DNA of 64,000 nucleotides from Candidatus Zipacnadia bacterium (GTDB lineage: Bacteria > Armatimonadota > Zipacnadia > Zipacnadales > UBA5352). Every line of letters begins with the position of its first letter. Positions within the stretch are counted from its first letter, which is position 1. The notes below the pieces were generated by a model. It was not told the origin of the DNA and ran no database searches. It saw nothing but the letters and a program-made list of their open reading frames with translations. A program made the translations under genes and the position numbers. The DNA is taken from contig JALGSW010000001.1 in NCBI GenBank assembly GCA_029821635.1, forward strand, positions 8,702 through 72,701, given 5' to 3'. Below, piece after piece: positions 14,796 through 45,967 of the stretch.

Positions 14796-14840
14796 CTGCG
14801 CATGCTGGGGTTGCGTGGGCTCGTCGCCGGGGCTGAAGAC

Positions 14841-14910: not shown

Positions 14911-14919
14911 GAGGTGAGT

Positions 14920-15861: not shown

Positions 15862-15891
15862 GGCGCGGGAGTCACTAGTGACGCCCGCGCC
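15862..15891. promoter_or_regulatory. 30-nt near-perfect palindrome between pilD and the first pilin gene
   Basis: GGCGCGGG-A-GTCACTAGTGAC-G-CCCGCGCC. The outer 8-bp arms are perfect, the inner 12-mer is self-complementary, and there is one A/G mismatch. It could be an operator or a terminator hairpin. Confidence 0.35.
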
Positions 15892-15956
15892 GCATCCGTG
15901 ACGGACCCGATTTCGCGCCAGAAAGATCCGCCAGCACATGTGGGAGGCACGCGACA

Positions 15957-16706: not shown

Positions 16707-16823
16707 CCTGAGGAGCAGGCGCCGGGCGAAGATACGCACGCAAGGGCGCGGGAGCGACCGCGCGGCAGCGACCGGATGCGAAGGGATACCGCCGTGACGA
16801 CAAGCGCGAGGAAAGGGACGGTC

Positions 16824-18449: not shown

Positions 18450-19246
18450 TGGCGGATGAGGAGAGGCGGTCTGTGATGGGCGCAGCGAGGCGCGACGCGC
18501 ACACAACATGGACGAGGCTCCGGGGTACGCGCGGCGGTTTCACGCTGATCGAGCTTCTCGTCGTGATAGCGATCGCGGTGATCCTGATGGCGCTGCTGGT
18601 TCCGACCGGCAAGGCGCTGCGGGACGGCAACCGCGCGATGACCTGCAAGAGCCAGCTTCAGCAGATCGGCGTGGCGCTGAAGGCCTACTGCCTCGATGAG
18701 GGAGGCGCGCCGCCGCTCTACATCGACCAGACCGGCGATCCGACCGATCCGGTGGCGAGCCCGCCCGATGGGCCGGGGCTGATGGCGCTCTACGAGACGG
18801 GTTACCTGAGCCGGCGCGAGACGCTGCACTGCCCGGTCGATTACTACTCGCCCGCCGGATCCGACGAGCATTTCGAGAGCTACCAGCGCTATGACGAGGA
18901 CGTAGCCGCAACTGTGGCGCTGAACCGCTACTCCTACCTGACCACGCGGGGCATTGAGGACGACACCAGCGACTGGTACCGCCGCCAGCTCCAGCCGGCG
19001 GCCGACATCGACAGCAACGCCGGCACGCCGGCAATGCCCGTGAACATGCCTGACTGGCGGCCCGACGACAACACGGTCATCACCTGGTGCCCCTTCCATG
19101 TGGACGCGGTCGAGGTCGGGGGCGAGGGCGCCTACCAGGTCCTGTTCTGGGACGGAAGTGTGCAGCGGGTGCGCAGGAGCGTCATGACGGACGACTCGGT
19201 TGGCCCGGATGAGGCGTGGAAGGTCGGACACCAAGACGCTGGGTAG
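18449..19246 (+). CDS. prepilin-leader protein, DUF1559-like C-terminus
   Basis: RGG|FTLIELLVVIAIAVILMALLVP. The C-terminal VLFWDGSVQRV resembles the conserved DG(S) tail of planctomycete/verrucomicrobial-type pseudopilins. GTG 18449 overlaps the TAG of the previous gene, and ATG 18476 is an alternative start. Confidence 0.7.
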   Translation: MADEERRSVMGAARRDAHTTWTRLRGTRGGFTLIELLVVIAIAVILMALLVPTGKALRDGNRAMTCKSQLQQIGVALKAYCLDEGGAPPLYIDQTGDPTDPVASPPDGPGLMALYETGYLSRRETLHCPVDYYSPAGSDEHFESYQRYDEDVAATVALNRYSYLTTRGIEDDTSDWYRRQLQPAADIDSNAGTPAMPVNMPDWRPDDNTVITWCPFHVDAVEVGGEGAYQVLFWDGSVQRVRRSVMTDDSVGPDEAWKVGHQDAG

Positions 19247-24245: not shown

Positions 24246-27200
24246 ATGCGGTTCGGCCGCGCATCATTTCTCTTGACAGCCCTCATTGGCGCCGCGCTGG
24301 CAGCCTCGCTGCCGGCCATGGCGGCGCGTACCGCATTCCGCTACGATGCCACCCAGCGCGTGACCAATGCCTGCGTGCTGGGAGTGAACGGCCAGACCGT
24401 CGCCGGCCACCCCAACCCCTACATCATCGAGGGCATCAGGCGTTCGGACCTCACGCCTGATGACTGGACGTTCGAGAACCCCCTCGCGCCCGCCACTGTC
24501 ATCGAGGGCGACCTTGCCGCCGACTTCGTCGTTAAGGGCAAGCGAGACTACTGGTTCGTGCCTCTGACCGATGACACCGCCAACCAGCTCGTCGGGATGG
24601 ACCTGATCTACATCTCCGCGCCCGACCTCGACCTCACCCCCCGCGAGCAGAATGGTCTGCGCGCCGCCGTCGAGGCGGGGGCGGTGCTGTGGGTGGACAA
24701 CGACATCGCCCGCAACGCCGGCGGCAACCCCACCGGCGAGACAGCCGTTACCGCGTTCCCGTGGGTCTTCAGCTTCGACTACAACGCCGGGGGGAACATC
24801 CATGCGCTGGAGGCGGTCGATCCGGGCAACTCACTGCTGCGCGACCCCTACGCGCTGTCCGCGGCGTCGATCGCACGCCTCGGCGACCGGCCCGACCGCG
24901 CCGAGTACGACGCGGCGGTCGGTGGCACTCTCACCGAGGGCCACTTCATCGACACGCTCGGCACCGAGTTCCGCACGATCATCAACAACGTCCAGTACAA
25001 CGGTGCCGGCGTGGTGCAGGGCACCGCGGCGTGGGCCATCGCGGCCGACTACGGCTCGGGCAGCGTGCTCGTCACCGCAGGCGGCGTCGGGCGCGACGTG
25101 GCCGAGTGGATCCTCGAACGCGAGTCGGGCGGCACCAACTGGCGCCCCTCGCCGGACTTCCTGCAGGCCCCGGACGTGAAGTTCGCGCTCAACGTCGTGC
25201 AGTGGAACGATCGCTGGCAGCAGGTCCGGCGGACGCCGCGCGCAAGTGCCACGAGCGTCGCGCGCGCTCCCTTCCCGCTGGACATCGCCTGGCAGTACCC
25301 CGATAGCAGCGAGGATGCGGCCGCCGTCGCCATCGGCGCGGTCGTCTCCACGCCCGTGCAGAGCCGCAACTTGCTCTACGCGCTGAGCGTGCCGTCGACC
25401 GTCGCCGGCGCGCCCGCCTACCTGATGTGCTTCGACATGACGCCCGAGGACGACCGTGACGGGGACAGCATGGCCGACGACGGCCTCACCGACTACTCCG
25501 GCGGCGCGCCCTACGACATGGTCTGGCGCGTGGCGCTCGACGCGGACATGACGCCGCGCTACGCGTCACCCACGCTCACCTCGTACAACGATCCGAATAA
25601 CAACCTGGGGAACGTCGCCGATGACGTCTTCTACCCGCAGGTGGCGCTGATCAGCTACGTGGACACGAGCAACGGCGAGGCCTGGGTGGACTGCTACGAC
25701 GCTTCGATCCCGACCGGCGGCACGCTGCTGTGGCGCCGGCAGATCGAGGGCTACTCCGCGAGCGCGCAGATCGTGTCGCTCTCTACGCCGATCGTACACA
25801 GGGGCTACGTCTACGTGCTCGCGAGCGAGTATGACACGGTGCTCAGCGGCGCGGGCGACCCCGACAGCACCTACACCCGCGCGCACTGCTTTGAGCTGGA
25901 CTACCCCTGGACTGTCGCCGATCCGTGGCCGACCGACGGCTCGTGGTGGGTCTACCCGTCGAGCCTGGTGAACATCGACGGGATCGGCACCGACGAGTCG
26001 GCTTCCGAGCCGCAGAACGCGCTGCCTCCCGTTGACGAGCCGCGCTGGGTCGCCGCCGAGGCGACGATGTACCCGCCCCCCCAGGGCCGCACTCCGCTCC
26101 CGCCCGCCCCCGGCGCCCTGCCCGTGGTCCATGCGGTGGGGACGACGATTGCCGGGGCGGCCGTCGATGCGCTGCTGACCTTCGGCACGCCGTTCTCGAA
26201 CGAGTGGGACGATCCGGACATCGAGATCGACAACGGCGCCGGTGGCAGCCAGTACACGCTCGTCCCGACGCCGTTCCGCGAGGACGACGAGTCGCCTGCG
26301 AAGCCGGGCTACGCTTCGGCCGCGCTGCCGTGGGGGATCGGGCTCAACCACGATCACTTCGCGCTGCGCATGAACGAAGTCATCAACGACCCGCCGGTCC
26401 CAGTCGTCACCACGCTCGATGGATCGCTGGTGGACGAGCACGTGTCCGCGGACGGCGATCGCTACGTGATCTTCTCGCCGAGCACGGCGCGTGAAGCGGC
26501 GATCCAGGCCGCGTTCGCGGGGGGCAACCCGCTCGAGGCGCAACTGGGCGTGGAGGTCGAGGTCGACTACAACGGGCTCGCGGACCCGGAGGCGCAGCGT
26601 CTCTCCGGTCCTGTCGCGTGGCGTCGCGCACTCAAGAACGGCCAGCGGCCCTACCAGCCCGCATCGATGAGCGACGATGAGATCGCGGTCACGTCCGGAC
26701 GGCCGGTCCAATACCAGTACCTCACGCCACCGCCTAACCCGCCGGCCGGTAGCGGCGCGATCACCGAGATGGACGCCTCCAGCGGCATCACGCGCTGGAG
26801 CTACGACCCGACGATCTCCATCCCGCAGCCGGGGACCGCGCCCACTATGAGCACGACCGCCGCGGCCTTCGACGACGAGACGCTCATCGTGGGTGCGAGC
26901 GCGGTGGACTACTCCAACCTCTTCTCTGTGAGCTCCATCATCGGGCTGCAGAGGCAGATCGACATGCAGATCGATCTCGCCGGTGGAACCGCCGGCGCCT
27001 ACCCGAGCGACGTCTTCATGCTCTGGCCGGGCGGCGTCATCCACCAGCTCGCCCCGAGCAGCTACAACGTTGACCCGTGGGCCGGCCGGCTCATGTTCCC
27101 GGCCGCAAGCGCGGCCGAGATGATCGACATCGACGGCTACGCAATCCCGGGGCCGGTCTACGGCAGGGCGATCCGGGTTGTGTGGCCTGACGGAACGACC

Positions 27201-29234
27201 GAGGATCACTTCGCGCCCGACATCGAGCGCTTCCACGTAACCCCCGGCTTCATCCGCCTGCGCTACCGGCCCTTCGATCCGGCGACCACCGTCATCACGA
27301 GGCCGGACGGGACCGCGATCGCCGGCGCCGCGTGGCTCAATGCGCCGCTTCCCTTCGGCGGCACGAACGCGGTGCTCGACGGCTGGGTTGACCTTCGTGC
27401 AGCGCTGGACGCCGACGGCGTCGCCGTCGCGCCCGGCGACGAGGTCTACGTGAGCTACACCGGCTGGTCGGAGGCGAATGGCGGGTGGGTCACGGTGCCC
27501 AGTGCCGGGCTCAACATCGCCACCGAGCACCACCAGCTCTCGCCGGTCTTCGGGCCGTCGCTATCATCCCCCGCGGTGGCTGGCGACACAATCCACCTCG
27601 GCACCCAGGGCCGCGACAGGGACCTTGACGGCGTCTTCGAGCCCGCCGCGCCCAATCCGGCGCGTGCCGAGACGCTGCTGTCGTTGATGTGGAACAAGGC
27701 CACCGGCTACGTGCGCACGGACATCGCGCGGCCCGCGCGGCAGCAGCCGGGCGTCGCGGGTATCCCGGTCGTGAGCGGCTCGCCCTCGATCGCCGAGGAC
27801 AGCGTCTTCGTTGGCTCGCGCATTATGAGCACCGCCGACAACACCGGCATCGGCTACGGCTACGTCAGCGCACTCAAGCCCTGGCGGGTGCTGCTGTGCG
27901 ACAGCAACCGCATCGTTGAGACCACCGGCTCTGACCCGAGCTGGGTCTGCACCGGCACGTCCAGCCCGCAGCGCGCGCAGTCGTTCGTCGGCGAGGACCT
28001 GCGTCGGCCGTTCAGCCGCCCGGCCAAGGCCGCGCGCCTGGACACCGACAACATCCTCGTCGTTGACACCGGCAACCACCGGGTCGTGGAGATCGACCGC
28101 GCCGGGCGCGTCGTCTGGCCGCTCGACCAGTTCGGCTACGAGTATTACACGAGCCCGGACAACCACGATCTGAAGCTCTCGCGGCCCGCCGACGCGCATC
28201 GCTACTGGGGCTACGTCACTGAGAATGTCGGCGGGACGCCGCGTACCTTCCCGGTGATGCACACCGTCGTCGCCGACACCGGCAACGCGCGGGTCGTCGA
28301 GATCTCGACCACCTTCTACGACCCGATCAGCTTCGTGCAGGATGGCCGCCAGCGGCACACGATCACGACGCTCACACCGGCCTACGTGCGTGTCGGGACA
28401 AGCGCGCGCGGCTACGAGCGCGTCCGCTACACCTCCTCCGCGCCGATCACCGATCCGGTCAATGGCGCTGTGATCGGCTACCTGTGCGCCGCCTCGAACC
28501 TCAACCAGCTCCTCGTGGTGACGGCGGGCAACCGGATCGTCAATCCCTACGCCTCCGTCGCCATCGCGGGCGGCACGGCCGGCTCGACATGGGCCCAGTG
28601 GGCGTGGCTCTACGACGAAGACCCGGCCGACGGCAACAACGTCTCGAGCCAGCCGCTGCAGTTCGAGAACATCAAGCACGTTGACCTGAGCCGCATCGGC
28701 GGCACGATCTACATGGCCGTCACCTGCTCGCGCTACCTCGGGCGCTCGGGCGACCCCAGGCACGCACTCGCCGCTGAGGGCGCGGGTGTCTTCGAGTTCC
28801 GCATCGACGCCTCGGGAGCCCCGGCGGCCTGGCAGCTCGATCGGATGGGCACGGGCGCAGCCTGGCCCACCGCCGACCCGCACTGGTTCTTCGTCGGGGA
28901 CGACTACCGCGGCCGCACGATGACGACGATCACGACCGCCGCCGCGGGCTACGACAAGCGCTGGTACCCGGTCTGCTCGCAGCGCGTCAGGCCCGACACG
29001 GTGCTTGTCACCAACAGCCTCAGCCAGATCGAGAGCGCGACGACGGCCAACATCGGCGCGGGCGTGCGCAACGCGGTGCTGGGCAGTCACATCTTCGAGG
29101 TCGAGACCGACGACGGCGGTGACGCGAACCCGACCAACGATGCACACTCGATCGATCCGGGGCGCTCGGTGCCCGCGCCCGGTGAGATGTGGGCCGATCC
29201 GTTCGTGCAGCCGGCCTACGCCGAGGTCAGATGA
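24246..29234 (+). CDS. 1662-aa secreted protein with NHL-type beta-propeller repeats (PilY1-position analogue)
   Basis: Signal peptide MRFGRASFLLTALIGAALAASLPAMA. NHL-like repeats NILVVDTGNHRVVEIDRAGRVVWP and HTVVADTGNARVVEIS lie near 28040-28320. It sits directly after the PilX_N-like gene. Confidence 0.6.
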   Translation: MRFGRASFLLTALIGAALAASLPAMAARTAFRYDATQRVTNACVLGVNGQTVAGHPNPYIIEGIRRSDLTPDDWTFENPLAPATVIEGDLAADFVVKGKRDYWFVPLTDDTANQLVGMDLIYISAPDLDLTPREQNGLRAAVEAGAVLWVDNDIARNAGGNPTGETAVTAFPWVFSFDYNAGGNIHALEAVDPGNSLLRDPYALSAASIARLGDRPDRAEYDAAVGGTLTEGHFIDTLGTEFRTIINNVQYNGAGVVQGTAAWAIAADYGSGSVLVTAGGVGRDVAEWILERESGGTNWRPSPDFLQAPDVKFALNVVQWNDRWQQVRRTPRASATSVARAPFPLDIAWQYPDSSEDAAAVAIGAVVSTPVQSRNLLYALSVPSTVAGAPAYLMCFDMTPEDDRDGDSMADDGLTDYSGGAPYDMVWRVALDADMTPRYASPTLTSYNDPNNNLGNVADDVFYPQVALISYVDTSNGEAWVDCYDASIPTGGTLLWRRQIEGYSASAQIVSLSTPIVHRGYVYVLASEYDTVLSGAGDPDSTYTRAHCFELDYPWTVADPWPTDGSWWVYPSSLVNIDGIGTDESASEPQNALPPVDEPRWVAAEATMYPPPQGRTPLPPAPGALPVVHAVGTTIAGAAVDALLTFGTPFSNEWDDPDIEIDNGAGGSQYTLVPTPFREDDESPAKPGYASAALPWGIGLNHDHFALRMNEVINDPPVPVVTTLDGSLVDEHVSADGDRYVIFSPSTAREAAIQAAFAGGNPLEAQLGVEVEVDYNGLADPEAQRLSGPVAWRRALKNGQRPYQPASMSDDEIAVTSGRPVQYQYLTPPPNPPAGSGAITEMDASSGITRWSYDPTISIPQPGTAPTMSTTAAAFDDETLIVGASAVDYSNLFSVSSIIGLQRQIDMQIDLAGGTAGAYPSDVFMLWPGGVIHQLAPSSYNVDPWAGRLMFPAASAAEMIDIDGYAIPGPVYGRAIRVVWPDGTTEDHFAPDIERFHVTPGFIRLRYRPFDPATTVITRPDGTAIAGAAWLNAPLPFGGTNAVLDGWVDLRAALDADGVAVAPGDEVYVSYTGWSEANGGWVTVPSAGLNIATEHHQLSPVFGPSLSSPAVAGDTIHLGTQGRDRDLDGVFEPAAPNPARAETLLSLMWNKATGYVRTDIARPARQQPGVAGIPVVSGSPSIAEDSVFVGSRIMSTADNTGIGYGYVSALKPWRVLLCDSNRIVETTGSDPSWVCTGTSSPQRAQSFVGEDLRRPFSRPAKAARLDTDNILVVDTGNHRVVEIDRAGRVVWPLDQFGYEYYTSPDNHDLKLSRPADAHRYWGYVTENVGGTPRTFPVMHTVVADTGNARVVEISTTFYDPISFVQDGRQRHTITTLTPAYVRVGTSARGYERVRYTSSAPITDPVNGAVIGYLCAASNLNQLLVVTAGNRIVNPYASVAIAGGTAGSTWAQWAWLYDEDPADGNNVSSQPLQFENIKHVDLSRIGGTIYMAVTCSRYLGRSGDPRHALAAEGAGVFEFRIDASGAPAAWQLDRMGTGAAWPTADPHWFFVGDDYRGRTMTTITTAAAGYDKRWYPVCSQRVRPDTVLVTNSLSQIESATTANIGAGVRNAVLGSHIFEVETDDGGDANPTNDAHSIDPGRSVPAPGEMWADPFVQPAYAEVR

Positions 29235-29296: not shown

Positions 29297-32200
29297 ATGC
29301 GAAACCGGTCGATCATCGCGATATTGCTTGCCTGCATCACAGCCGTCCCCGCGCTCGCGGAGGACGGGCCACCGTGGCAGGTGCGTCCGTACCTTTCCAC
29401 GTACACCGACGACTCCGCACGGTCGGCGACCGAGACGTGGACGTGGAACTACTCCGCTCTGCGGCACCATATCGTGTGCCCCTACTGCGGCTACAGCACG
29501 ACCGTCGAGGACCCGACGCCCGACCTGGACTACACCTGCCCGAACCCCTTCGACATCGCGGGCCATCCGGCAACGCAGCTCACGGAGGCCAATCCGCTTC
29601 AGCGCGTCCTCGGGCACCTCGAGGTGGGCGCTGAGGACATCGACGGTGACGAGGCGGCGCCACTGGTCGGGCGACCGTTCCATCCGGGCGGCATCGCCGC
29701 TCCGGTCTGGAACGACACCCCCTCTCCGTGGGAGGACCCGGTGGCGCTGGAGGATCAGGCGTCGTGGGTTACGCTGCGCGCGGACAATCTCGACGCCACC
29801 GACGGCGGCGGCCCGCTCGTCCAGGACGGCGACGGCCTGCGCTTCCTGCTGCTTGAGCCCGGCGCGGTCAGGCCGCAGGCGAGCTTCCAGTATGTGGACC
29901 CCACTGACGTGGTCACCGCCGCGGCAACCTTCTACGCCACCGGCGCCGGCGACGCGGGCACAAGTGGCGCGGGCCCGGCGAACTACATCATCTCCATCAA
30001 CCCCAACCGCGTCTCCGATGGCGACGTGTTCTACATCCGCCATCACGAGCGACGCGAGACGTGGTTCATGGGCTTCCTCGGCAGGACCGCGGAAGTTGAC
30101 TGCCAGGTCTACAGCACGCTCTACGGCAACGACTTCGACACCGCCGGCGAGATCGACGACGCGCTCCTCGAGCTCGCGCCCTACGACACGCAGCAGGGCT
30201 GTCAGATCGTCACCGACAGCGGTGCGCTGCGCGTCACGCTCCCCCGGCGCTTCTCCACCGTCGCGGTGCTGGAGAATACCTGGGTGCTCAAGATCGTCAT
30301 CAACTCCAATGCCCGCCTGATGCCGGGACCCGAGGAGGTCAACTGGGACCTCGTCGATGGCGTGGACCTCTACACCGAGCCCGCGGAGGTCGAGCCGGAC
30401 CTGCTCACCAACATCAACGCCGATCTCTCGCAAAAGAAGGCCGCGTACGTCGCCTATGCCAGCGGCAACGATCCCGCCCTCGCCACCGCCGACGACAACG
30501 ATGGCATCGCCTATGACGTGGAGGAGAAGGACCTGCATGGCGACGGCTTCATCTCGTCGGAGATCTGGCCGTACCGGATGCAGCCGGAGGCCGCCGGACG
30601 CGGTCGCGCGATGCTCCAGTGGTCCGAGCTCATCCCGTCCGCGGCCCTGCAGCAGGACAACCCGGCATTCCTCGCCCAGATGGTCTACTACCGCGACGGC
30701 GCGGAGTGGAACTACCTCGCGGACATCGATGGCTTCGAGACGCGGCTGGTCACCAACGGGGATGTCGCGAACCAGACCGCCATCAGCAGCACGACCACGA
30801 ACTACACGTACATCGACTCGTACTTCATGTGCTCGCGCGTGGACGTTGATCACGACGCGGCCTACCCATTCTACCTCGCCGATGACAACTGGATGGACTC
30901 ACTGGGCAATGACAAGGGCGTGGTTGTCGGCGACCTCGAGCCCGCCACCGGTGGCCACGCGCGCATCGTCCTCGGCGAACTGCAGGACGCGCCCAGCGAT
31001 GCCTGGGGCGGCGAGTACAAGCCCGGCACGCGCACCCCCGCCCGCGTCTTCTCGCTGGCGAACCGCATGGAGGTCCGCCCGCTCGTCTGCCCGCTCGACG
31101 ACGACGGCTGCGGCGCGCGCTACCGGCTCGACGAGCCCTTCGCGGACGGTAATGACGGCCAGCTCGCCCCCGGCGACGACTGCCCCGCCTGCGGCGTGGA
31201 GCTGATCCTCGAGCGCGGCGAGGCCGAGGTGCGCTACGACTCGCAGGACGTGATGGCCGCCAACGCCGGCGCACAGCGCATGACCGCCACCGCCTTCCGC
31301 TTCGAGCCGAACGCGCTCGTTCCGATGGGCGCGGTTGACTTCGAGCAGGAGGTCTTCGCCGACATCCCGGCCTACCAGCCGCCGTCGGTGCCCGCGGGCG
31401 CCACGCCCTTCGCCAACGACATCGCCAACGACTTCGGCTACCGCGGCACGATGGTGGCCTTCAACCGGCCCGAGGATGACGGCGACGCCCAGACCGCCAA
31501 CACCAACTGGGACGCCTACTATCTCTCGCCCGAGGACGGCGACAAGCTCGCCAGCGTAGACGCCGCCACCGCCGCCGATGCCGAGTGGGTCTGCTCGGTC
31601 TGCCACACGCGGCTGAACCGCAGCTACACCGACTGCACCTGCTGCGGCCACACCTTCGCGGCGGCCGACGATCTGCCCAACCCCTACGTGATGCACGACG
31701 CGCTCACGGCTGAGGAGTACGATCCCTTCGGCCTGCAGCTCTCCGTGCTGCGACAGGCGGGGCTCGCCGCCGACCAGCGCGTCGTGGACCTCGGCTGGGT
31801 CGCGCCCGGCACCCCGCAGGACGCGCCCAACACGGTCAACGGCTCAACGGACGTGGTTGCCGGCAGCGCGGCCGTGCCCACGGACGTCTCCAACCGCGGC
31901 GACCTGCCCGTGCGTAACGAGGGCAACATCATCGTGGACACGGAGATGCGCTCAGGGCCGCTGCTGCAGACCGGCGTGGACCAGGCAGTGCGTTCGGAGA
32001 GCCGCTGGGCGCAGAGCGTGCCGATCACGCTCGGGACACTCTTCCGCTACCGCCCCGGCCCGAACGAGTTCGACAGCGCCGACTGGATGCTCGACTCCCC
32101 CGACGCCACCGGCGCCGCGGGCGCGAGTGCGACCGCGATGCTGCAGGTCGGCGTCCGCGCCATCGCTGGCGATCCCTACGGTGGCACCGTCAAGCCCGTC

Positions 32201-34753
32201 CCGCTGGGCCAGCCGGTCGGCAACTACGCCAGCGAGGTGCTCGTCTTCATCGACCTGAACGGTGACGGCGACCTCGACTTCTACGATGTCCAGACCGGCG
32301 CGACCAACCGTCCGTCCACCGAGTTCGATCCGGGCATCGACGAGCCGTTCGAGCCCGTCGCGCCCTTTGCCACGCGCGCCCGCGTCACCGAGGCGCGGCT
32401 GCCGCAGGACGACTTCTACTCGCAGGACGTCACGCCGACGCTCCTGTATCAGGAGAACCAGGCGACGCCTGACCAGAGCCGCATGCAGGTGCTGTGGGTG
32501 GGGCAGAGGGCCGCTCCGGCCGCCGCCGGCGCCGATGCGCCCGCAGGCGTCTCGCCCGCGAACGTCCCGGCGCCGATCGCGCCGACCAACATCCTCTACT
32601 CCAACGCGCAGGTCAACGCCGGCGCCGCCGCCGCGGCCGACCCGGTCTACCGCGGCTGGCTGTGGGCACCGGCGGGCACTGAGCCCGCGGATGCAGACGC
32701 ACTCTCGGTCAGCGCGACCGCCAACGAGAGCAACAGTTCGCCCACCGCCTACGTGGACGGCGCGAATGGCAATCGCTGGGTCATGTGGCACCGCTCGCAG
32801 GCCTCCGCGGCGGGCATCTCCTCCCAGCTCCGCTTCGACACCTCGTCCACCGCGGACTGGGACGGCTCCGACCCGACCGAGTTCATCTTCGGCAGCGCCG
32901 GCGCGCATAGCGGCCTCACCGCCTTCGTGCGACCGGGCGCGGCCAACGCACACTGGCTGCTCTGGCACGGCGGCCCGGTCGGCCGCGAGAACCTGCGCTA
33001 CCGCTGGGAGTGGGACCCGACCTCGGGCACCGTGCCCGGCGACGCGCGGCTGATGGTCAGCAATACCTCCACCGGCCTGCGCTTCGACTACTTCGACGTC
33101 GGCGGCCAGCGCTACCGCAAGCCAGCGCTCGATCCCTTCACCTACGTGAAGGAGGCCAGCGCCTTCGGCACGACCGACGGCGCGGGGGACTTCCAGCTCG
33201 ATGTGCTCTTCACCGGGCACATCCGCTCGCTGGGCAACTCCGACATTTGCTGGTCGCGCTTCAGCTTCGGCAACCCCGCCGACGCGGACTTCCCGTATAA
33301 CTCTGCACAGGATAACTTCGGCAAAGTTCCATTCCCGCGCGTGGCCGGGCAGACCTACGGCGCCGCACCCTACGCCACCACCGACGCCCGCGGGATGTCC
33401 GCGGTCATCGACGCCGCCGGCGACGTGCGCGGCTACGTCGGCGAGCAGCTTCAGTCCAGTCCGCGTCGCGAGGCGTTCCAGGCGCATGACATCGACTGGC
33501 TCGTGACCTACGACTACGAGACCGACCCGGACTGGCAGACGTGGCTTACGGACGCCGCTCCGAAGCCCACGACCGCCGACTACGATGACCCGATGCTCTA
33601 CGTGGGCGTGGTGACCGATGACGGCACCGGCGCGGCGCAGAGCCTCTACGCGGTCGAGTGGAGCGAGGGAGCCTACAACGCCGCCACGGGCCTCTACCAG
33701 GTGCTCCCGCGGCTGATAGGCCTGGACGTGCTCTCGGGCAGTCTCGCGGAGTTGCCCGACCCAGCGGATCCGGCGAATGACCCCGCACTGCCGCATCCGA
33801 ACGACGACAGCGCCACCGACGCGATCTACTGGCGGGCCATCGGCGGTGTCAACGCGAAGGCGTTGCTCGCGCCGCGCGCGCGCCAGGAAGCGATGGACGG
33901 AAGCGCTCCTGAGGGCCTGCCCGCCGTCATGCTCACGATCAACCCGGCGTCGGGCATGGTGCAGTGGTCTTCGTCGCTGTTCAACCCGGACAACCCGTTC
34001 GACAGCCAGGCGGTCTTCAACGAGCAGAACACGCCCAATATCGTTGACGTGGTGATGTACGCGGACTACACGCCGTTCACGCGCCGCGCCACCACGGACA
34101 TGGCGGACGACGACTCGCCGTCGGCGTTCTGGAACGCGGGCGACAGCGGCCGGCTGACGGTCTTCTGGCGGCGCAGCTACGCGGACACCGACACACCGCA
34201 CTTCGGCCGCCCGTCGTTCTTGTATAAGACCTACACCCGCGCCATCCAGGTCGGCCGCCCGCCGATCGCCGGCATGGGCAGCGTCATCGACCGGACCGTC
34301 CATCCCACCGGGGCCGCGCCCGATGTCACCTACAACGTGCTCTCACCGGCCAACGGTGTGATCGAGATTGGCACGAGTCCTGCAACATCACTGTCGAGGA
34401 TCGGTCACCGGATCGCCGTGACTTACACGGACGGCGCCGGCGTGTCCCGCACCGAGCAGCACCGCGTCATCGGCTGGAGCCTGGAGACGCCGGTGCCGAT
34501 CAACGCCGTCACCTCCGAGGGCCCGCTACGGGTGATCCCGGAGGTCTACGACGTCGATCCGGGCTCAGGCGACGTGTTCACCACGGTGCGCTACTGGCTC
34601 GCGTGGTCGAGCTCGCGCGGTGTCTACGACATGCGCGGCGCGGCCGCCGACGGCCAGCGGGTGCATCAGTCGCCGGACGTGTATCTCGCCGTGGTGGCGC
34701 CCGAGCACAGCAGCCTGATCGCGGACCTCCAGGTGCCCAGACTCGAGCCGTGA
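29297..34753 (+). CDS. 1818-aa secreted giant protein with Cys-knuckle motifs and a DxDxDG loop
   Basis: The start is at ATG 29297 (GGAGAGGTG RBS) with signal peptide MRNRSIIAILLACITAVPALAEDG. Cys motifs at 29477-29539, 31088-31192 and 31592-31645. DLNGDGDLD at 32252-32278. No family recognised. Confidence 0.65.
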   Translation: MRNRSIIAILLACITAVPALAEDGPPWQVRPYLSTYTDDSARSATETWTWNYSALRHHIVCPYCGYSTTVEDPTPDLDYTCPNPFDIAGHPATQLTEANPLQRVLGHLEVGAEDIDGDEAAPLVGRPFHPGGIAAPVWNDTPSPWEDPVALEDQASWVTLRADNLDATDGGGPLVQDGDGLRFLLLEPGAVRPQASFQYVDPTDVVTAAATFYATGAGDAGTSGAGPANYIISINPNRVSDGDVFYIRHHERRETWFMGFLGRTAEVDCQVYSTLYGNDFDTAGEIDDALLELAPYDTQQGCQIVTDSGALRVTLPRRFSTVAVLENTWVLKIVINSNARLMPGPEEVNWDLVDGVDLYTEPAEVEPDLLTNINADLSQKKAAYVAYASGNDPALATADDNDGIAYDVEEKDLHGDGFISSEIWPYRMQPEAAGRGRAMLQWSELIPSAALQQDNPAFLAQMVYYRDGAEWNYLADIDGFETRLVTNGDVANQTAISSTTTNYTYIDSYFMCSRVDVDHDAAYPFYLADDNWMDSLGNDKGVVVGDLEPATGGHARIVLGELQDAPSDAWGGEYKPGTRTPARVFSLANRMEVRPLVCPLDDDGCGARYRLDEPFADGNDGQLAPGDDCPACGVELILERGEAEVRYDSQDVMAANAGAQRMTATAFRFEPNALVPMGAVDFEQEVFADIPAYQPPSVPAGATPFANDIANDFGYRGTMVAFNRPEDDGDAQTANTNWDAYYLSPEDGDKLASVDAATAADAEWVCSVCHTRLNRSYTDCTCCGHTFAAADDLPNPYVMHDALTAEEYDPFGLQLSVLRQAGLAADQRVVDLGWVAPGTPQDAPNTVNGSTDVVAGSAAVPTDVSNRGDLPVRNEGNIIVDTEMRSGPLLQTGVDQAVRSESRWAQSVPITLGTLFRYRPGPNEFDSADWMLDSPDATGAAGASATAMLQVGVRAIAGDPYGGTVKPVPLGQPVGNYASEVLVFIDLNGDGDLDFYDVQTGATNRPSTEFDPGIDEPFEPVAPFATRARVTEARLPQDDFYSQDVTPTLLYQENQATPDQSRMQVLWVGQRAAPAAAGADAPAGVSPANVPAPIAPTNILYSNAQVNAGAAAAADPVYRGWLWAPAGTEPADADALSVSATANESNSSPTAYVDGANGNRWVMWHRSQASAAGISSQLRFDTSSTADWDGSDPTEFIFGSAGAHSGLTAFVRPGAANAHWLLWHGGPVGRENLRYRWEWDPTSGTVPGDARLMVSNTSTGLRFDYFDVGGQRYRKPALDPFTYVKEASAFGTTDGAGDFQLDVLFTGHIRSLGNSDICWSRFSFGNPADADFPYNSAQDNFGKVPFPRVAGQTYGAAPYATTDARGMSAVIDAAGDVRGYVGEQLQSSPRREAFQAHDIDWLVTYDYETDPDWQTWLTDAAPKPTTADYDDPMLYVGVVTDDGTGAAQSLYAVEWSEGAYNAATGLYQVLPRLIGLDVLSGSLAELPDPADPANDPALPHPNDDSATDAIYWRAIGGVNAKALLAPRARQEAMDGSAPEGLPAVMLTINPASGMVQWSSSLFNPDNPFDSQAVFNEQNTPNIVDVVMYADYTPFTRRATTDMADDDSPSAFWNAGDSGRLTVFWRRSYADTDTPHFGRPSFLYKTYTRAIQVGRPPIAGMGSVIDRTVHPTGAAPDVTYNVLSPANGVIEIGTSPATSLSRIGHRIAVTYTDGAGVSRTEQHRVIGWSLETPVPINAVTSEGPLRVIPEVYDVDPGSGDVFTTVRYWLAWSSSRGVYDMRGAAADGQRVHQSPDVYLAVVAPEHSSLIADLQVPRLEP

Positions 34754-34969
34754 CGTCGGTGCATGGAGGCCGGGCGGAGCGGGCGATGGTTGTCCGCGAA
34801 AGCTTAACGCAGGGACGATAGAGGGATCATGCTCCGGGTGGGGAAGATGAGCGTGTACCGGAGACTTGACATTGGCCTGCCAGATATAATAGAGTAACCG
34901 AGGATCAGGCTGCCCGGAGCGGCCATCGCTCGGGAGTGAGAGGCTGCAATACGGCAGGAGGCGCGCTAC

Positions 34970-36307
34970 ATGGCCAAGGGCGCAACGCATGTCCTGGGCC
35001 TGGACATCGGGACAGCATTCATCAAGGCAGCGGAGATCCAACTGCGCGGCAGTGAGTTCCACGTTGTCGGTCGCCCTGCAGTGATCCCGACGCCTCGCGG
35101 TGCCGTGCGTGGTGGCGTTATCGTTGACGCCCCCGCGGTGACCGAGGCGCTTCAGGAGATCCGCGCCCACTTCGGCATCAAGTCGAAGAAGGTGATCGCC
35201 TCGGTAGGCGGCGACTCATCCGTCGTCGTGCGTATCACCGAGGTGCCCCGTATGTCCGGCAAAGAGCTCGATGAAGCTGTCCAGTGGGAGCTCGACGAGC
35301 AGACGCCCTTCCCCGTTGACGAGGTCATCTACGACTACTCCCCGATCGATCGCCCCGACGCCGACCCTGAGGCGACCGAGATGGAGATCCTGCTCGCTGT
35401 AGCGCAGGAGGACCTTGTCGCGGCGCACGTCGAGGCTATCCAGGGCGCAGGGATGCAGCCGGTGGCTATGGACATCGAACCGCTCGCCATCGGTCGCGCC
35501 ATCATAGACGCCGCAGGCGAGGAGATGGCCGACGAGACCATCGTCAACGTCCACGTCGGCGCTACCAACTCGCTGATCCTGATCTTCCGGCACAAGCTGC
35601 TCGGCTTCGTGCGCGTCATCCCCTCGGGTGGCGAGAACCTCAGCCAGGCCCTCGCCCAGAGCCTCATGCTCGACCAGGAAAACGCTGAAGTTGTTAAGCT
35701 TCAGCTCGGAAACCTTAACGAGGGCGGGCTTGTCGAAGAACCGACGGACGAGTTCGGCGGCGCCGGCATGTTCGAGGAGGAAGAGGAGGACGACGGGCTC
35801 GGAACCGACTCGGTCTTCGAGCTTTCCAGCACTGAGGACGCGGCCGACCTCGGCCCGGTGGACGACCGCGCTACGCACCTTGAGATCGAGGAGGACCTGG
35901 GCGAGATCGAGGAGCCTCCAGCCGCAGAGATGCCGGCGCCGCCGGCCATGGCGGCCGACGCGGAGCCGCAGGACCCGGATCTGGTCGAGGCGCGGGAGCA
36001 CGTCGCCGAGGCCCTTACCGAACCGGTCCTCGACCTCGCAACTGAGGTCCGCAGGTCCCTGGAGTTCTACCGCCGGCAGCACCGCAACGAACCGATCGAC
36101 CGCATCGTGATCACCGGCGGGACAGCCAATCTCGAGGGCATCGCGCAACTGATGACCGACGAGACAGGCGTCAAGTCCGAAGTCGGCAACCCGTTCAAGC
36201 ATATGCAGTTCGACGATGACACCATTTCTGAGCACTACCTGCGCGACATCGGGCCATCCAGCGTCGTGGCCGTCGGGCTCGCGCTCCGCGACATGGTCGC
36301 CGAGTGA
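34970..36307 (+). CDS. pilM: type IV pilus assembly protein PilM (actin-like ATPase fold) with acidic insertion
   Basis: VLGLDIGTAFIKAAEIQ N-terminus and an IVITGGTANLEGI C-terminal phosphate-2-like motif. A roughly 90-aa E/D-rich insertion is encoded around 35712-35990. Confidence 0.85.
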   Translation: MAKGATHVLGLDIGTAFIKAAEIQLRGSEFHVVGRPAVIPTPRGAVRGGVIVDAPAVTEALQEIRAHFGIKSKKVIASVGGDSSVVVRITEVPRMSGKELDEAVQWELDEQTPFPVDEVIYDYSPIDRPDADPEATEMEILLAVAQEDLVAAHVEAIQGAGMQPVAMDIEPLAIGRAIIDAAGEEMADETIVNVHVGATNSLILIFRHKLLGFVRVIPSGGENLSQALAQSLMLDQENAEVVKLQLGNLNEGGLVEEPTDEFGGAGMFEEEEEDDGLGTDSVFELSSTEDAADLGPVDDRATHLEIEEDLGEIEEPPAAEMPAPPAMAADAEPQDPDLVEAREHVAEALTEPVLDLATEVRRSLEFYRRQHRNEPIDRIVITGGTANLEGIAQLMTDETGVKSEVGNPFKHMQFDDDTISEHYLRDIGPSSVVAVGLALRDMVAE

Positions 36308-36354
36308 GCCACCGGACGACACCGCTGACGACCGACTGATCTGAGGGATCGCAC

Positions 36355-37233
36355 GTGCTGAGGATCGACCTGCTGCCCCGACAGATAGCGATTGCGAGGA
36401 TGAACAAGCTCCTCGTCGCGCTCATAATCGTGCTCCTGGTCGTCGAGCTTGGCGCGCTCGGCGCGATGCTGATGGGCGTCAAGGGCCAGATCGGCACGGT
36501 CGACGAGGAGCTCACTAAGATCACGAAGATCGCGGACCAGGTCGAGGACCTCCAGGCCGAGGTCAACGCCAAACAGGCCGACCTCGATCCGATTAAGCTG
36601 AAGGTGGACTTCGTCGAGGACGCGAATAGCTCTGGCGAGCAGTACTGGGATCGCTTCCACGCGATCAACGAATACATCTACGACAATGCGCAGCTCACGC
36701 GCTTCAGTCTCACCGGGGGCAGCTCAGTCAACTTCACGGTGATTGTCGGCGACACGACCGACGCGGCTCGCTTTGTGCTGAACCTGGTGCATTGCCCGGC
36801 CCTGTCGAACGTCGCCGTCTCGGGCCTGCCGGCCGGAATGAGCGTCGAGGGCGTGGGTGGCGCCGCGGCAGGTGGCTTCACGCCCATGGCAGGTGGCATG
36901 GACCCGATGATGGAACCTGGCATGGACCCGGGGATGGAAGCTGGTATGGACCCGGGCATGGAGCCCGGAATGGGCGGAATGGGCGGAATGGGCGGAATGG
37001 GTCCGCAGGCCTCCGCGAGCGGTGACATTACGCTCGACGTCACGGCCACGCTGACCGAGCCCACGGAAGTCCCCTCGCCGGGCGGCGGAGCCGCCGCGGG
37101 CGGAATGCCCGGAATGCCGGGAATGCCCGGAATGGAGCCAGGGATGGAACCGGGCATGGAGCCAGGGATGGAGCCTGGGATGGAGCCTGGGATGGACCCT
37201 GGTGCCGGCGGCGCAGAAGCACCGCCCGCGTAA
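36355..37233 (+). CDS. pilN: PilN-like pilus alignment protein with two Met-Pro-Gly repeat blocks
   Basis: GTG start. The MLRIDLLPRQ (INLLP-type) motif is followed by a TM segment and a coiled coil. It sits directly after pilM. Confidence 0.75.
   Translation: MLRIDLLPRQIAIARMNKLLVALIIVLLVVELGALGAMLMGVKGQIGTVDEELTKITKIADQVEDLQAEVNAKQADLDPIKLKVDFVEDANSSGEQYWDRFHAINEYIYDNAQLTRFSLTGGSSVNFTVIVGDTTDAARFVLNLVHCPALSNVAVSGLPAGMSVEGVGGAAAGGFTPMAGGMDPMMEPGMDPGMEAGMDPGMEPGMGGMGGMGGMGPQASASGDITLDVTATLTEPTEVPSPGGGAAAGGMPGMPGMPGMEPGMEPGMEPGMEPGMEPGMDPGAGGAEAPPA
36898..37005 (+). repeat. coding tandem repeat block 1 (MDP/MEPG/MGG units)
   Basis: Encodes MDPMMEPGMDPGMEAGMDPGMEPGMGGMGGMGGMG. The nucleotide level shows GGAATGGGC repeated three times. 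Confidence 0.85.
37102..37203 (+). repeat. coding tandem repeat block 2: (GGAATGCCN)x3 then (ATGGARCCNGGN)x6
   Basis: Encodes GMPGMPGMPG-MEPG-MEPG-MEPG-MEPG-MEPG-MDPG. The 12-nt units from 37132 to 37203 are nearly identical at the DNA level. Confidence 0.9.
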
Positions 37234-37286
37234 CTGCAGCAACGCGGCAGCATCGGGCCGCATGACCGCAGCACAGGAGCAATCTG

Positions 37287-38036
37287 ATGGGCCGTATACC
37301 AACCTGGGCAGTCATACTCATAGGTGTCTTCCTCTTCGCGGGAGCGGGAGCGCTCGTCTTCATGCTCATGATTAAGCCTGAGCGCGAGCGCCTGGACGAT
37401 CTGCAGGGCCAGCTTCAGGAGAAGACGGACATCGCGAACAAGCTCGACGCCACAAATGCACAGCTTGCGGATGTCACAGCCCAGTGGCTGGAGGCCCAGG
37501 AGCAGGTGCAGGACCTGCGCGAGGCGCGCAGTATCCCGATTTCATTCGGCCACCCGGCCGGCGCGATGATCGCTCTGTGGTATGAGTATCGCCACGATCT
37601 CGTCCCGCTTATCGAGGACTGGGTCCAGTCCAGCGGCTGCACCATCGAGAGCGGCGCGAGCTTCCCTGCACCGCCGATGACGCCGCCCGCCGCCCCGCCC
37701 AGTGGCTTCATGCAGGTGCCGGGCGGCCAGCCGATCGCGCTCACCGTCTCAGGCACGCTTCAGCAGCTTGAGCGGCTCTACCGGTCGCTGGATCAGTTCG
37801 AGCGCGTGGTCACCATCAGTGACCTCGTGCTGGTCCCAACGGGCGAGGGCGACAGGCTGCAGGCGCCGGTCAACCTGGCCATCTATTTGCTGGTCGAGGC
37901 GCCCACGCCCGCCCCCGCACCTGCGGGCGACGGAGAGGGCGGGATGGAAGGCGACATGCCGCCGGGGGACGGCGGAGAGCCCATGCCCGAGGGCGAGGGC
38001 GAAGTTCCCGTCGATGAAGAACTGCCCCCTGAGTAA
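37287..38036 (+). CDS. pilO: PilO-like pilus alignment protein
   Basis: N-terminal TM (WAVILIGVFLFAGAGALVFMLMI), then a coiled coil (ERLDDLQGQLQEKTDIANKLDATNAQLADV), then an alpha/beta domain. Acidic M/P/G tail. Sits after the pilN-like gene. Confidence 0.7.
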   Translation: MGRIPTWAVILIGVFLFAGAGALVFMLMIKPERERLDDLQGQLQEKTDIANKLDATNAQLADVTAQWLEAQEQVQDLREARSIPISFGHPAGAMIALWYEYRHDLVPLIEDWVQSSGCTIESGASFPAPPMTPPAAPPSGFMQVPGGQPIALTVSGTLQQLERLYRSLDQFERVVTISDLVLVPTGEGDRLQAPVNLAIYLLVEAPTPAPAPAGDGEGGMEGDMPPGDGGEPMPEGEGEVPVDEELPPE

Positions 38037-38118
38037 CCGCCCGGTCCCCCCTTGGGACGTGGGCTTGTTGGTCAGATATTCGTGGTCCATATGACGTACG
38101 CAGTGGAAGGGTCCGACT

Positions 38119-38949
38119 GTGATCGAGGAGCAGAAGGCAAAAGCCCTGTTTGCCGGCGGCATAGCCCTGTTCGTGGTAGGGCTGGTTGTCCTCATGCTGT
38201 TCGTGATCCCTGCGGCGAGGCACACGCAGGTCGCCATGGCGCAGGATGAGGAGGACGCCGCGCCGGAACCCGACGCCGCTGGCGAAGTTGACCCGGGGAT
38301 GGATCCCGGCATGGAGCCTGGGAGGGAGCCCGGCATGGAGGGAATGCTCGGCATGGAGGGCATGCCCGGCGCCATGCCAGGTGGCGGCGGAGGTGGCGGA
38401 GTGGGCGAAGTGCCGCCCGGCCAGATCCTGGACCCGCTCGAGGCCAGCCGCCCCAACCCGTTCTCGCCGCGTTCGAGCATGGCGACGCCCGCCGCGGCCG
38501 CCGCGGCACTGGCCAGCCCGCACTACGGGCCCGACTGGAGCCAGCTCCCGATCGCCGAGCGCGTCGCATTCGTGCGGCCCGACATCCCGTCGGCCCCGAC
38601 ACCCGCACTGCCCCGCCTCGATCCGCCGCCGGAGTCGCAGGTGCGAATCACCAGCATCCTGTGGGACGCGTCCGGGCAGGCAATGGCCGCCTACGAGGAT
38701 CCCGACGGCAAGAAGGGCGAGCTCAAGCCCGGCGACAGAGTTCCCGGCACCGGCCTGACAGTGCGGGAGATCACCCGGGTGGGCGCTACGCTCGAGAACC
38801 CGCGGACCGGCGAGACGCAGGAACTTGAGCTGCGCCCGCGTGTTGAGAAGAAGGAAGAGCCCCCGCAGAGGCAGCCGAGGCGTCCGTCCCGTGGCGGCAG
38901 CAGTAGCAGCAACCGCGGAGGCTTCCCTGGCGCGCCTCCCGGCGGTTAG
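38119..38949 (+). CDS. PilP-like protein (TM anchor, Met-Pro-Gly repeat, C-terminal beta domain)
   Basis: GTG start and TM segment ALFAGGIALFVVGLVVLMLFVI. Repeat DPGMDPGMEPGREPGMEGMLGMEGMPGAMPGGGGGG (about 38291-38400). The C-terminus ITSILWDASGQAMAAYEDPDGKKGELKPGDRVPGTGLTVREITRVGATLE resembles the PilP beta-sandwich pattern. Confidence 0.5.
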   Translation: MIEEQKAKALFAGGIALFVVGLVVLMLFVIPAARHTQVAMAQDEEDAAPEPDAAGEVDPGMDPGMEPGREPGMEGMLGMEGMPGAMPGGGGGGGVGEVPPGQILDPLEASRPNPFSPRSSMATPAAAAAALASPHYGPDWSQLPIAERVAFVRPDIPSAPTPALPRLDPPPESQVRITSILWDASGQAMAAYEDPDGKKGELKPGDRVPGTGLTVREITRVGATLENPRTGETQELELRPRVEKKEEPPQRQPRRPSRGGSSSSNRGGFPGAPPGG

Positions 38950-39003
38950 TGTATACGTTGATAGCACACGATTGCGGGGAAGTAAGAGCAGGAGTGGATC
39001 AAG

Positions 39004-39735
39004 ATGCGTAAGACAGTGCTCGCGCTGATTGCTCTCATGATGTTGGGCGCCTTCGTTCTTCCTGTGATGGCGCAGGAGGAAGAGGTGCGGCTTGACCTCG
39101 ACTTCCGGGGCGAGTCCCTCGACCAGATTCTGCAGTTGTTCCGGCGCGGCTACGCGCTGGAGTACACACTGGGTGAGGGTGTCGATCCGAACACCCAGAT
39201 TACCACGCATCTTCGTGGCGTCACGCTCGACCAGGCCCTTCGCTCGATCCTTGAGCCCAACGGCCTGCTGGCGATCGAGCAGAACGGCCGCTACGTGGTC
39301 AAGGAGCGCCCGACGCCCACGGAGCGCACGGAGCCCGCAAGCCGCACGGTGACGCCCGTGTTCACGACCGAGAGCCGCACGCCGCCCGCACCGACCCGCC
39401 AGGCGCGCGCCTACGAGCCGCGCCGCGGAGCGGCGGAGGAAGAAGAGGGCGAAGAGGAAGAGCGCGATGAGGTCATGGAGATCATCTATCCCATGTACCT
39501 CGGCGCGGACATGGCCTCGGCCATCTTCGGCGGCGGCTTCGTTGAGGCCGGCGGCTACTACGGCGGCGGCAGCGGCGGCAGCAGCAGCAGCTACGGCGGC
39601 AGCAGCAGCAACAACTCGAGCTTCGGTGGCAATCGCAGCAACAGCAGCTCCAGCTTCGGGAGCAACCGCAGCAACAGCAGCAGCAACTTCGGGAGCAATC
39701 GCAGCAGCAGCAGCAACCGCAACTCGGGTTACTGA
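39004..39735 (+). CDS. secreted STN/secretin-N0-like domain protein with FG/Ser/Asn low-complexity tail
   Basis: Signal peptide MRKTVLALIALMMLGAFVLPVMAQE. Domain LDLDFRGESLDQILQLFRRGYALEYTLGEGVDPNTQITTHLRGVTLDQALRSILEPNGLLAIEQNGRYVV. Acidic linker, then a GGYYGGGSGGSSSSYGGSSSNNSSFGGNRSNSSSSFGSNRSNSSSNFGSNRSSSSNRNSGY tail. Confidence 0.7.
   Translation: MRKTVLALIALMMLGAFVLPVMAQEEEVRLDLDFRGESLDQILQLFRRGYALEYTLGEGVDPNTQITTHLRGVTLDQALRSILEPNGLLAIEQNGRYVVKERPTPTERTEPASRTVTPVFTTESRTPPAPTRQARAYEPRRGAAEEEEGEEEERDEVMEIIYPMYLGADMASAIFGGGFVEAGGYYGGGSGGSSSSYGGSSSNNSSFGGNRSNSSSSFGSNRSNSSSNFGSNRSSSSNRNSGY
39550..39732 (+). repeat. coding AGC/AAC-rich tandem repeat (about 33-nt units encoding FG[GS]NRSNSSS)
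   Basis: AGCTTCGGTGGCAATCGCAGCAACAGCAGCTCC / AGCTTCGGGAGCAACCGCAGCAACAGCAGCAGCAAC / TTCGGGAGCAATCGCAGCAGCAGCAGCAAC. There are long (AGC)n runs. Confidence 0.85.
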
Positions 39736-39834
39736 ACGCTTTGCCACAAAGCTGGTGTGGCGTAGCGCGCCTATCGTAGACACGTTCGGGTAGATGGCGT
39801 CGTTCGCAGACGGAGTTCCTGGGAGGGCCCAAAG

Positions 39835-45966: not shown

Positions 45967-45967
45967 G

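Follow-up and report, generated by a model that had tools for sequence, protein, structure and literature searches.

A giant signal-peptide protein encoded beside type IVa minor pilin genes of Armatimonadota carries three conserved, putatively metal-binding cysteine knuckles

The window analysed here is the whole 64,000-nucleotide stretch taken from contig JALGSW010000001.1 (positions 8,702 to 72,701) of a 'Candidatus Zipacnadia' bacterium of the phylum Armatimonadota. Directly behind a set of minor pilin genes, the window contains a gene for an 1818-aa protein with a signal peptide and three compact clusters of cysteines. The protein is probably an exported accessory factor of a type IVa pilus (T4aP), comparable in role to PilY1, in which the clusters may hold zinc ions as structural staples.

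The gene and its product

The gene begins with ATG at 29297, preceded by the Shine–Dalgarno-like sequence GGAGAGG, and its stop codon ends at 34753; the stop of the upstream gene lies 62 nt before the start. The GC content at third codon positions (GC3) is 0.90, comparable with that of all genes of the long plus-strand operon. Start, ribosome-binding-like site, stop and GC3 bear out the open reading frame (ORF) proposed in a first-pass annotation made from the sequence. The product is strongly acidic (D+E 13.7%, K 0.8%). Among 5.8 billion proteins, a word-indexed search retrieved 22 relatives, with identities from 100% down to 28%. Scans of Pfam and NCBIfam, run at E ≤ 1 on all 22 members, assigned no family; the description of the protein as having no recognisable family therefore holds, and a profile search of a large protein library agrees with it. 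The features of the gene are as follows.

29297..34753, plus strand: the gene, encoding an exported protein without a curated family (ORF, GC3, Pfam and NCBIfam scans)
29297..29362, plus strand: Sec signal peptide of signal peptidase I (SPase I) type, aa 1–22 (sequence; conservation in homologues)
29363..31756, plus strand: N-terminal β-rich region with the three putative knuckle modules, aa 23–820 (AlphaFold2 (AF2) model)
29477..29566, plus strand: putative knuckle module 1, C61-P-Y-C64-G ... C81-P-N-P ... H90 (conservation, rubredoxin profile match, model)
31088..31192, plus strand: putative knuckle module 2, C598-x6-C605-G ... C629-P-A-C632-G (conservation, ligand swaps, hhalign)
31592..31645, plus strand: putative knuckle module 3, C766-S-V-C769 ... 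C780-T-(C)-C783-G (conservation, ligand swaps, profiles)
31769..32386, plus strand: highly conserved segment, aa 825–1030 (many invariant G, P, D, E and R residues)
32252..32278, plus strand: DLNGDGDLD loop, aa 986–994, fitting calcium motif 1 of PilY1/PilC (motif match)
32387..34711, plus strand: β-propeller-like region and further β domains, aa 1031–1805 (AF2, Foldseek)

The signal peptide, read from the sequence as MRNRSIIAILLACITAVPALA↓ED, is of the SPase I type. A basic n-region, a hydrophobic core of 12–15 residues and an A-x-A or A-x-G site, followed by a conserved PPWEVR segment, were found in 22/22 homologues, which confirms the earlier view of a signal-peptide protein. Lipobox variants occur as well: LSGC replaces the cleavage site in P0021, and P0020 has a lipobox-like AAGC. 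A lipoprotein signal through LLAC at C13 was rejected for the window protein, because C13 is not conserved. The protein has neither the class III signal (G↓FxxxE) nor the N_methyl match by which a pilin or pseudopilin is recognised.

The three cysteine clusters

The protein contains 17 cysteines, one of which (C13) lies inside the signal peptide. Of the 16 in the mature protein, 12 fall into three clusters: C61/C64/C81 (window positions 29477–29539), C598/C605/C629/C632 (31088–31192) and C766/C769/C780/C782/C783 (31592–31645); C269, C302, C512 and C1318 are unclustered. The four CxxC pairs and 12 clustered cysteines observed compare with means of 0.13 and 1.8 in shuffled mature sequences, and none of 20000 shuffles attained these values. 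The first-pass claim that most cysteines lie in three compact motifs is thereby upheld, and its coordinates and spacings are exact. Two of its details did not survive: H57 and H58, which had been counted into motif 1, are not conserved in the 22 close relatives, where H90 is the conserved histidine, and C782 of motif 3 is not conserved either, being found in the window sequence alone and replaced by F or Y in homologues. Motif 3 is therefore to be read as CxxC-x10-CxxC.

Conservation of the remaining cysteines, the check that the first-pass annotation had proposed, is high. None of the 22 close relatives departs from C61, C64, C81, C629, C632, C766 or C780; C598, C605, C769 and C783 are retained in 21 of them and H90 in 20. 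All three clusters persist down to 25–30% identity.

The residues following the anchoring cysteines were counted in 56 distinct sequences, comprising the close relatives and distant members. Motif 1 consists of three cysteines and the nearby H90, and its first knuckle is CxxC in 47/48 sequences. At the fourth-ligand position of motif 2, in the second knuckle, C occurs 39 times, H 10 times, D twice and other residues twice. The first knuckle of motif 3 is CxxC in 48/52 sequences, and the fourth-ligand position in its second knuckle holds C (33), D (14), E (1), H (1) or T (2). Within a single sub-clade, P0050, P0051 and P0052 end motif 3 with D, C and E, respectively, so the swaps arose more than once. 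Zinc is bound by Cys, His, Asp and Glu; exchange of the fourth residue among these same four types fits a metal ligand, whereas exchange of a disulfide partner would strand one cysteine unpaired. In P0020, C598 and C605 are lost, and an insert brings a new CNEC knuckle beside CPNPGC, so that the four-ligand count of motif 2 is restored. Motifs 2 and 3 each consist of two Cys-x2(-x6)-Cys knuckles 10–35 residues apart, as zinc ribbons do, and, apart from the few residues just given, the ligand positions are restricted to C, H, D and E in homologues.

Two further observations concern the clusters in distant members. In P0036, P0038 and P0039 a domain of about 100 residues is inserted right after the second knuckle of motif 2, which reads CPYH there. 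Proteins of the most divergent clade, that of P0022 (loci L002, L026 and L027), have 34–36 cysteines and extra CPxCG knuckles.

Similarity to known metal sites

The profile searches with the motif windows that had been suggested at first pass gave clear results for two of the three motifs. Against PDB sequences, the motif 1 profile matched rubredoxins (E 3e-6), and the motif 3 profile matched rubredoxins (E 4e-7) and also the L37Ae ribosomal zinc ribbon; motif 2 matched weakly. The best matches of the whole-protein profile to PDB sequences were zinc ribbons, at E 0.2. A profile of the N-terminal 800 residues, searched against 1.84 billion cluster representatives, retrieved 51 proteins with E ≤ 0.001, of which some 40 are members of the family or fragments of members. 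The non-family matches align to the motif 3 region alone, and 6/6 of those scanned carry an above-threshold Pfam Zn_ribbon_3, DZR or Zn_Ribbon_1 domain. Motifs 2 and 3 also resemble one another (hhalign probability 96%). Sub-threshold matches included Zn_Ribbon_TF, DZR_2, Zn_Ribbon_1 and RUBY_RBDX; Pfam Rubredoxin (PF00301) reached E 0.21 at best, in 2/22 members, and does not claim the protein as a member.

An AF2 model of aa 1–930 had a predicted local distance difference test score (pLDDT) of 76 and a predicted template modelling score (pTM) of 0.79. In it, each knuckle is flanked by two short strands, in blocks with pLDDT of about 90; DSSP places the strands at 59–60/67–68, 595–597/608–610, 628/635–638, 764–765/772–773 and 779/786. 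At the level of predicted secondary structure, the knuckles thus sit at β-hairpin turns, as in zinc ribbons.

The same kind of module is found in another protein of the operon, a minor pilin.

19349..21253, plus strand: 634-aa PilW/GspJ-like minor pilin (N_methyl match), with module 1 at 19979–20041 and module 2 at 20618–20683

Homologues of this pilin are named by NCBI as members of the PilW or PulJ/GspJ family. Its cysteines are C211/C216/C228/C231 in module 1 and C424/C427/C442/C445 in module 2. Module 1 is present in 35/35 homologues, with CxxD instead of CxxC in three. Module 2 (CPACG...CPSCG) is a clean insertion or deletion of about 33 residues, present in 16/35 homologues, and behaves as a mobile mini-domain. 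It matches motif 2 of the 1818-aa protein with an hhalign probability of 96.6% (P 5.6e-10), and CNECG...PCPNPGCGGTL, the knuckle gained by P0020, is very similar to CTDCGG...PCPNPSCSGVL of the pilin. The suggestion that the two proteins share a module is supported by the hhalign comparison and by the Cys-to-Asp swaps, which occur in the pilin homologues too.

On this evidence, zinc-ribbon or rubredoxin-type metal knuckles are the favoured reading of the three clusters; that they bind metal, and zinc rather than iron, is what we infer from the sequences. The first-pass annotation had wavered between zinc sites and disulfide staples. The ligand swaps, the knuckle profile matches and the replacement knuckle of P0020 clearly favour metal sites.

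Domain architecture

The fold of the N-terminal region finds no counterpart: for its model, Foldseek gave no PDB match at E < 0.1, and among the viral structures of BFVD none reached E ≤ 0.001 (best E 0.025). Such matches as appear are to lectin-like or jelly-roll folds, at noise level.

The segment aa 825–1030 is among the most conserved stretches of the family, yet its pLDDT is 20–46 in both models; it gives a weak FG-GAP_3 match. This segment may be a partner interface, folding only against that partner, or an unmodelled first propeller blade. Within it lies the DLNGDGDLD loop. The calcium-binding motif 1 of PilY1/PilC is Dx(D/N)xDGxxD (PMC13190605). The 1818-aa protein is the only one to contain this motif among the seven pilin and giant proteins checked (15882–34753); its expected chance count in the 1818-aa protein, estimated from the composition of that protein, is about 0.02, and a relaxed form of the loop is retained in most homologues. 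An RGD triplet at aa 867 was dismissed, about 0.8 such sites being expected by chance.

The C-terminal region (aa 1031–1805; pLDDT 73, pTM 0.76) resembles the propellers of sialidases and of GH43, GH32 and GH62 enzymes in Foldseek searches, with E values from 4e-6 to 1e-3. These are 5- and 6-bladed glycosidases. No glycosidase Pfam family was found in any of the 22 members, and the protein is not a sialidase or GH43 member by that measure.

Genomic context

The pilus genes that surround the gene, apart from the minor pilin given above, are the following.

10290..15780, plus strand: pilB, pilT, pilC and pilD (stop-to-stop coordinates)
15882..19246, plus strand: a 274-aa DUF1559-type pilin gene and 580-aa and 275-aa prepilin-type genes (stop-to-stop coordinates)
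21297..24197, plus strand: 966-aa protein with an N-terminal hydrophobic anchor, a co-inherited partner without a family
24246..29234, plus strand: 1662-aa signal-peptide protein with one NHL repeat, a co-inherited partner
34866..34895, plus strand: promoter-like site between the 1818-aa gene and pilM (consensus match alone)
34970..41466, plus strand: pilM, pilN-like, pilO and pilP-like genes, an STN protein gene and the pilQ secretin gene

The order in the window is pilB-pilT-pilC-pilD, the DUF1559-type pilin gene, the prepilin-type genes for 580, 275 and 634 aa and the genes for the 966-, 1662- and 1818-aa proteins, followed by pilM, pilN-like, pilO, pilP-like, the STN protein gene, pilQ, aroC and aroK-aroB. 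As the first-pass annotation had it, the gene is the last before pilM (34970–36307), its next neighbour. From the 634-aa gene through the 1818-aa gene, the intergenic gaps measure 43–62 nt, against 216 nt ahead of pilM; this longer gap holds the promoter-like site and yielded no terminator-like one. The short upstream gaps and the long, promoter-bearing gap downstream indicate that the gene belongs to the minor-pilin unit.

The order 634, 966, 1662, 1818 aa and then pilM onward is retained in about 20 loci, including those of homologues with 30% identity, and this synteny substantiates the proposed link to the pilus. The 966- and 1662-aa proteins are always co-inherited with the 1818-aa protein; neither partner shows sequence similarity to it or a PilY1 domain, and a test for paralogy between it and the 1662-aa protein was negative. 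PQQ_2 is faintly recognisable in homologues of the 1662-aa protein. In Pseudomonas, the minor pilin genes are ordered fimU-pilVWXY1, and by analogy the locus described here parallels that order, with the giants in the positions of PilX and PilY1. In L002, a locus of the P0022 clade, topoisomerase I and dprA genes are among those downstream of the trio.

Some other features of the window may be mentioned. An ORF at 53236–56106 contains Thioredox_DsbH (DUF255) and DsbD_N-like domains; its product is possibly a thiol-reducing envelope protein, which would bear on the redox state of cysteines outside the cytoplasm. A PASTA-domain protein (44407–45966 and 45887–48201) is encoded after aroK-aroB in the window and in L001, L003, L004 and L005, and occupies this place in most loci that reach so far; an extracytoplasmic function (ECF) sigma factor and a zf-HC2 anti-sigma-like protein are encoded just downstream of the PASTA region in the window. 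A 1764-aa ORF on the minus strand (37870–43164), antisense to pilO-aroC, fails the GC3 > 0.8 filter passed by the plus-strand genes that it overlaps, and appears to be spurious, as is typical of high-GC DNA.

Distribution of the family

The named genomes among the 22 relatives are all Armatimonadota metagenome-assembled genomes (MAGs). When GTDB species were scanned with one genome each, 23 loci came up, which belong to Armatimonadia or 'Candidatus Zipacnadia' with the exception of two MAGs labelled WS1 and one labelled 'uncultured bacterium'. The C-terminal half of the protein had no tblastn match in 72,556 plasmids. The family is small, lineage-restricted and confined to uncultured bacteria. 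The 'Zipacnadia' hosts live as anaerobes in anoxic sediments (PMC10290634).

The MAG Meg22_810_Bin_187 has two paralogues of the protein (L019 and L020). The conserved gene order is found at both paralogous loci, each with its own pilM, pilN and pilO downstream, which points to two pilus clusters, each equipped with giants of its own.

Interpretation

The best explanation is that the 1818-aa protein is a PilY1-like exported T4aP accessory protein stapled by zinc, to which a probability of about 0.55 is given; metal binding, the identity of the metal, location at the pilus tip and a role as adhesin or in priming are the parts of it that we infer. According to this explanation, the protein is a Sec-exported non-pilin that shares its transcription unit with the minor pilins. 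Along with the 966- and 1662-aa proteins, it would most likely enter the priming or tip complex of the minor pilins, with a part comparable to that of PilY1/PilC. Each knuckle module probably coordinates a single metal ion, most likely Zn2+, via Cys4 or Cys3-His/Asp. It would serve to staple long surface loops, a structural task that falls to disulfides in the pilus proteins of aerobes. The C-terminal propeller-like body, with the conserved Ca2+-type loop before it, may dock on pilins or bind a ligand, which might be a glycan. In exported pilus proteins, stability normally comes from disulfides and calcium; the anaerobic life of the hosts in anoxic sediments would fit metal-thiolate staples that replace disulfides.

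Several results weigh against this explanation. The PilY1 domain (PF05567) had no match in the 22 members at E ≤ 1 or, with the limit raised to E ≤ 10, in the C-terminal half, and the PilY1 structure (3HX6) lies outside the top 50 fold matches of that half. In the most divergent clade, the trio of giants stays together, but pilM and the rest of pilMNOPQ do not adjoin it. As for the metal sites, no Pfam zinc-ribbon model attains its curated threshold on the protein, and the zinc-ribbon matches of the motif 2 profile in the PDB are weak (E 0.01). The ligand swaps are partly clade-specific, so the independent events are fewer than the raw counts imply. Finally, the P0020/P0043 clade retains just two cysteines of motif 3, C766 and C780, which fits a decayed site and a residual disulfide equally well.

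Among the alternatives, the one that survives best, although it is itself unlikely, is that the protein acts outside the pilus, as a surface or secreted protein that binds or cleaves glycans and is merely co-encoded cargo or a co-regulated factor. The propellers of sialidases and of the GH43, GH32 and GH62 enzymes are indeed the best fold matches of the C-terminal region, the noise-level matches of the N-terminal region include lectin-like jelly rolls, and the separation of the trio from pilMNOPQ in the most divergent clade points the same way. Set against this are the lack of a glycosidase family by sequence in the 22 members, the place right after the minor pilins, kept across deep divergence and at both paralogous loci of one MAG, the occurrence of the same knuckle module in a pilin of the same operon, and the presence of the PilY1-type calcium motif.

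It is rather improbable that the clusters are metal-free, paired disulfide staples of a periplasmic protein. Export of the protein would allow it, and the joint loss of C769 and C783 in P0020/P0043, with C766 and C780 kept, is what two independent pairs would lead one to expect. The substitutions at the fourth position speak against such pairing: with His in 10 sequences and Asp in two at motif 2, and Asp, Glu or His in 16 sequences at motif 3, each swap leaves three cysteines and one of them partnerless. Motif 1, with three invariant cysteines and a conserved histidine, does not suit pairs either, the CPxCG knuckle fits metal sites in the PDB, and the habitats of the hosts are anoxic.

A small chance is left to the view that the knuckles, as rubredoxin-like iron or labile zinc thiolates, respond to redox conditions or metals on the pilus-tip complex of strict anaerobes. 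PilY1 has a known Ca2+ switch; were this view true, oxidants, sulfide or the availability of metal might switch pilus function, or electrons might be passed, alongside a PilY1-type Ca2+ switch. Very improbable, too, is the proposal that the clusters are rubredoxin-like Fe(Cys)4 centres with a redox function for a pilus-associated protein. Rubredoxins are the top PDB matches of the motif 1 and motif 3 profiles, the ligands of motifs 2 and 3 are all cysteines in the window protein and the hosts are anaerobes. However, these matches span just the generic knuckle, which is common to zinc ribbons, and the aromatic core of rubredoxins was not seen; Pfam Rubredoxin stays at the E value given above in two members, and replacement of ligands by His, Asp or Glu is typical of structural zinc, not of rubredoxin iron.

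That the signal peptide is unused and the protein is a cytoplasmic, nucleic-acid-binding zinc-ribbon protein is hardly tenable: most zinc ribbons are indeed cytoplasmic and many bind nucleic acids, but an n-h-c signal peptide with an AxA/AxG site is found in all homologues (with a lipobox instead in one), the protein is very acidic and it is a β-propeller giant among exported proteins and pilins. DNA binding by the knuckles was likewise set aside, given the acidity of the protein and modules that are not basic.

If the zinc-stapled, PilY1-like reading is right, the new element is a PilY1-like giant composed of new domains, with exported zinc-ribbon modules that it would have in common with a minor pilin. 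Exported knuckles of the zinc-ribbon type are unusual, as CP-x-CG sites are otherwise typical of the cytoplasm. Should the sites bind metal, anaerobic Armatimonadota would use zinc-ribbon modules as a standard extracytoplasmic building block, in a minor pilin as well as in a giant, and would possess an alternative way to stabilise surface proteins where disulfides are unavailable. The knuckle modules are short, well-delimited fragments, directly testable for metal content.

Comparison with known systems

As in zinc-ribbon and rubredoxin domains, two CPxCG-type knuckles, 10–35 residues apart, are predicted at β-hairpin turns of the 1818-aa protein; the profile matches and the restriction of the ligand positions to C, H, D and E are further points of likeness. 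The known domains sit in small cytoplasmic proteins, whereas the modules described here are loops in an exported, β-rich 1818-aa protein and in a pilin. They remain below every curated Pfam threshold, and in the clade of the window protein the first knuckle of motif 2 has the spacing Cx6C.

Among the components of type IV pili, PilD and the extension ATPase have C4 zinc sites of the form CxxC-Xn-CxxC, and reviews of the pilus place zinc in these cytoplasmic parts of the machine alone (PMC10191384, PMC4471445). The likeness lies in the occurrence of CxxC-Xn-CxxC in type IV pilus proteins; the sites of PilD and the ATPase are on the cytoplasmic side, whereas those of the present locus are in Sec-exported proteins. 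A literature search on zinc ribbons in minor pilins or periplasmic proteins found nothing relevant. Piepenbrink et al. (J Biol Chem, 2014) reportedly described a structural zinc site in the pilin PilJ of Clostridioides difficile. PilJ would then be similar in being a type IV pilus protein of an anaerobe with cysteine-bound extracytoplasmic zinc instead of the usual pilin disulfide. It would differ in having a single site within a pilin fold, in coming from a monoderm, in having no zinc-ribbon module and in not being a giant accessory protein.

The closest functional parallel is PilY1/PilC (PF05567). Like these proteins, the 1818-aa protein is large, carries a Sec signal without being a pilin and is encoded directly after minor pilins, here those of a T4aP; its C-terminal body is propeller-like, a conserved Dx(D/N)xDGxxD loop of the calcium type matches motif 1 in sequence and the N-terminal modules are variable. 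The differences are several. The fold matches of the propeller-like body are led by 5- or 6-bladed glycosidases and not by PilY1, a seven-bladed propeller; the calcium-type loop precedes the confidently modelled propeller and does not lie within it; and the N-terminal part has three putative metal knuckles and no vWA domain. In place of one PilY1 there are two unrelated giants, of 1662 and 1818 aa, and the PilY1 domain is absent from the 1662-aa neighbour as well. Judged by its sequence, the 1818-aa protein is PilY1-like in its probable role but no member of the PilY1 family, and a conserved cassette of three proteins (966, 1662 and 1818 aa) would replace PilY1 in these pili.

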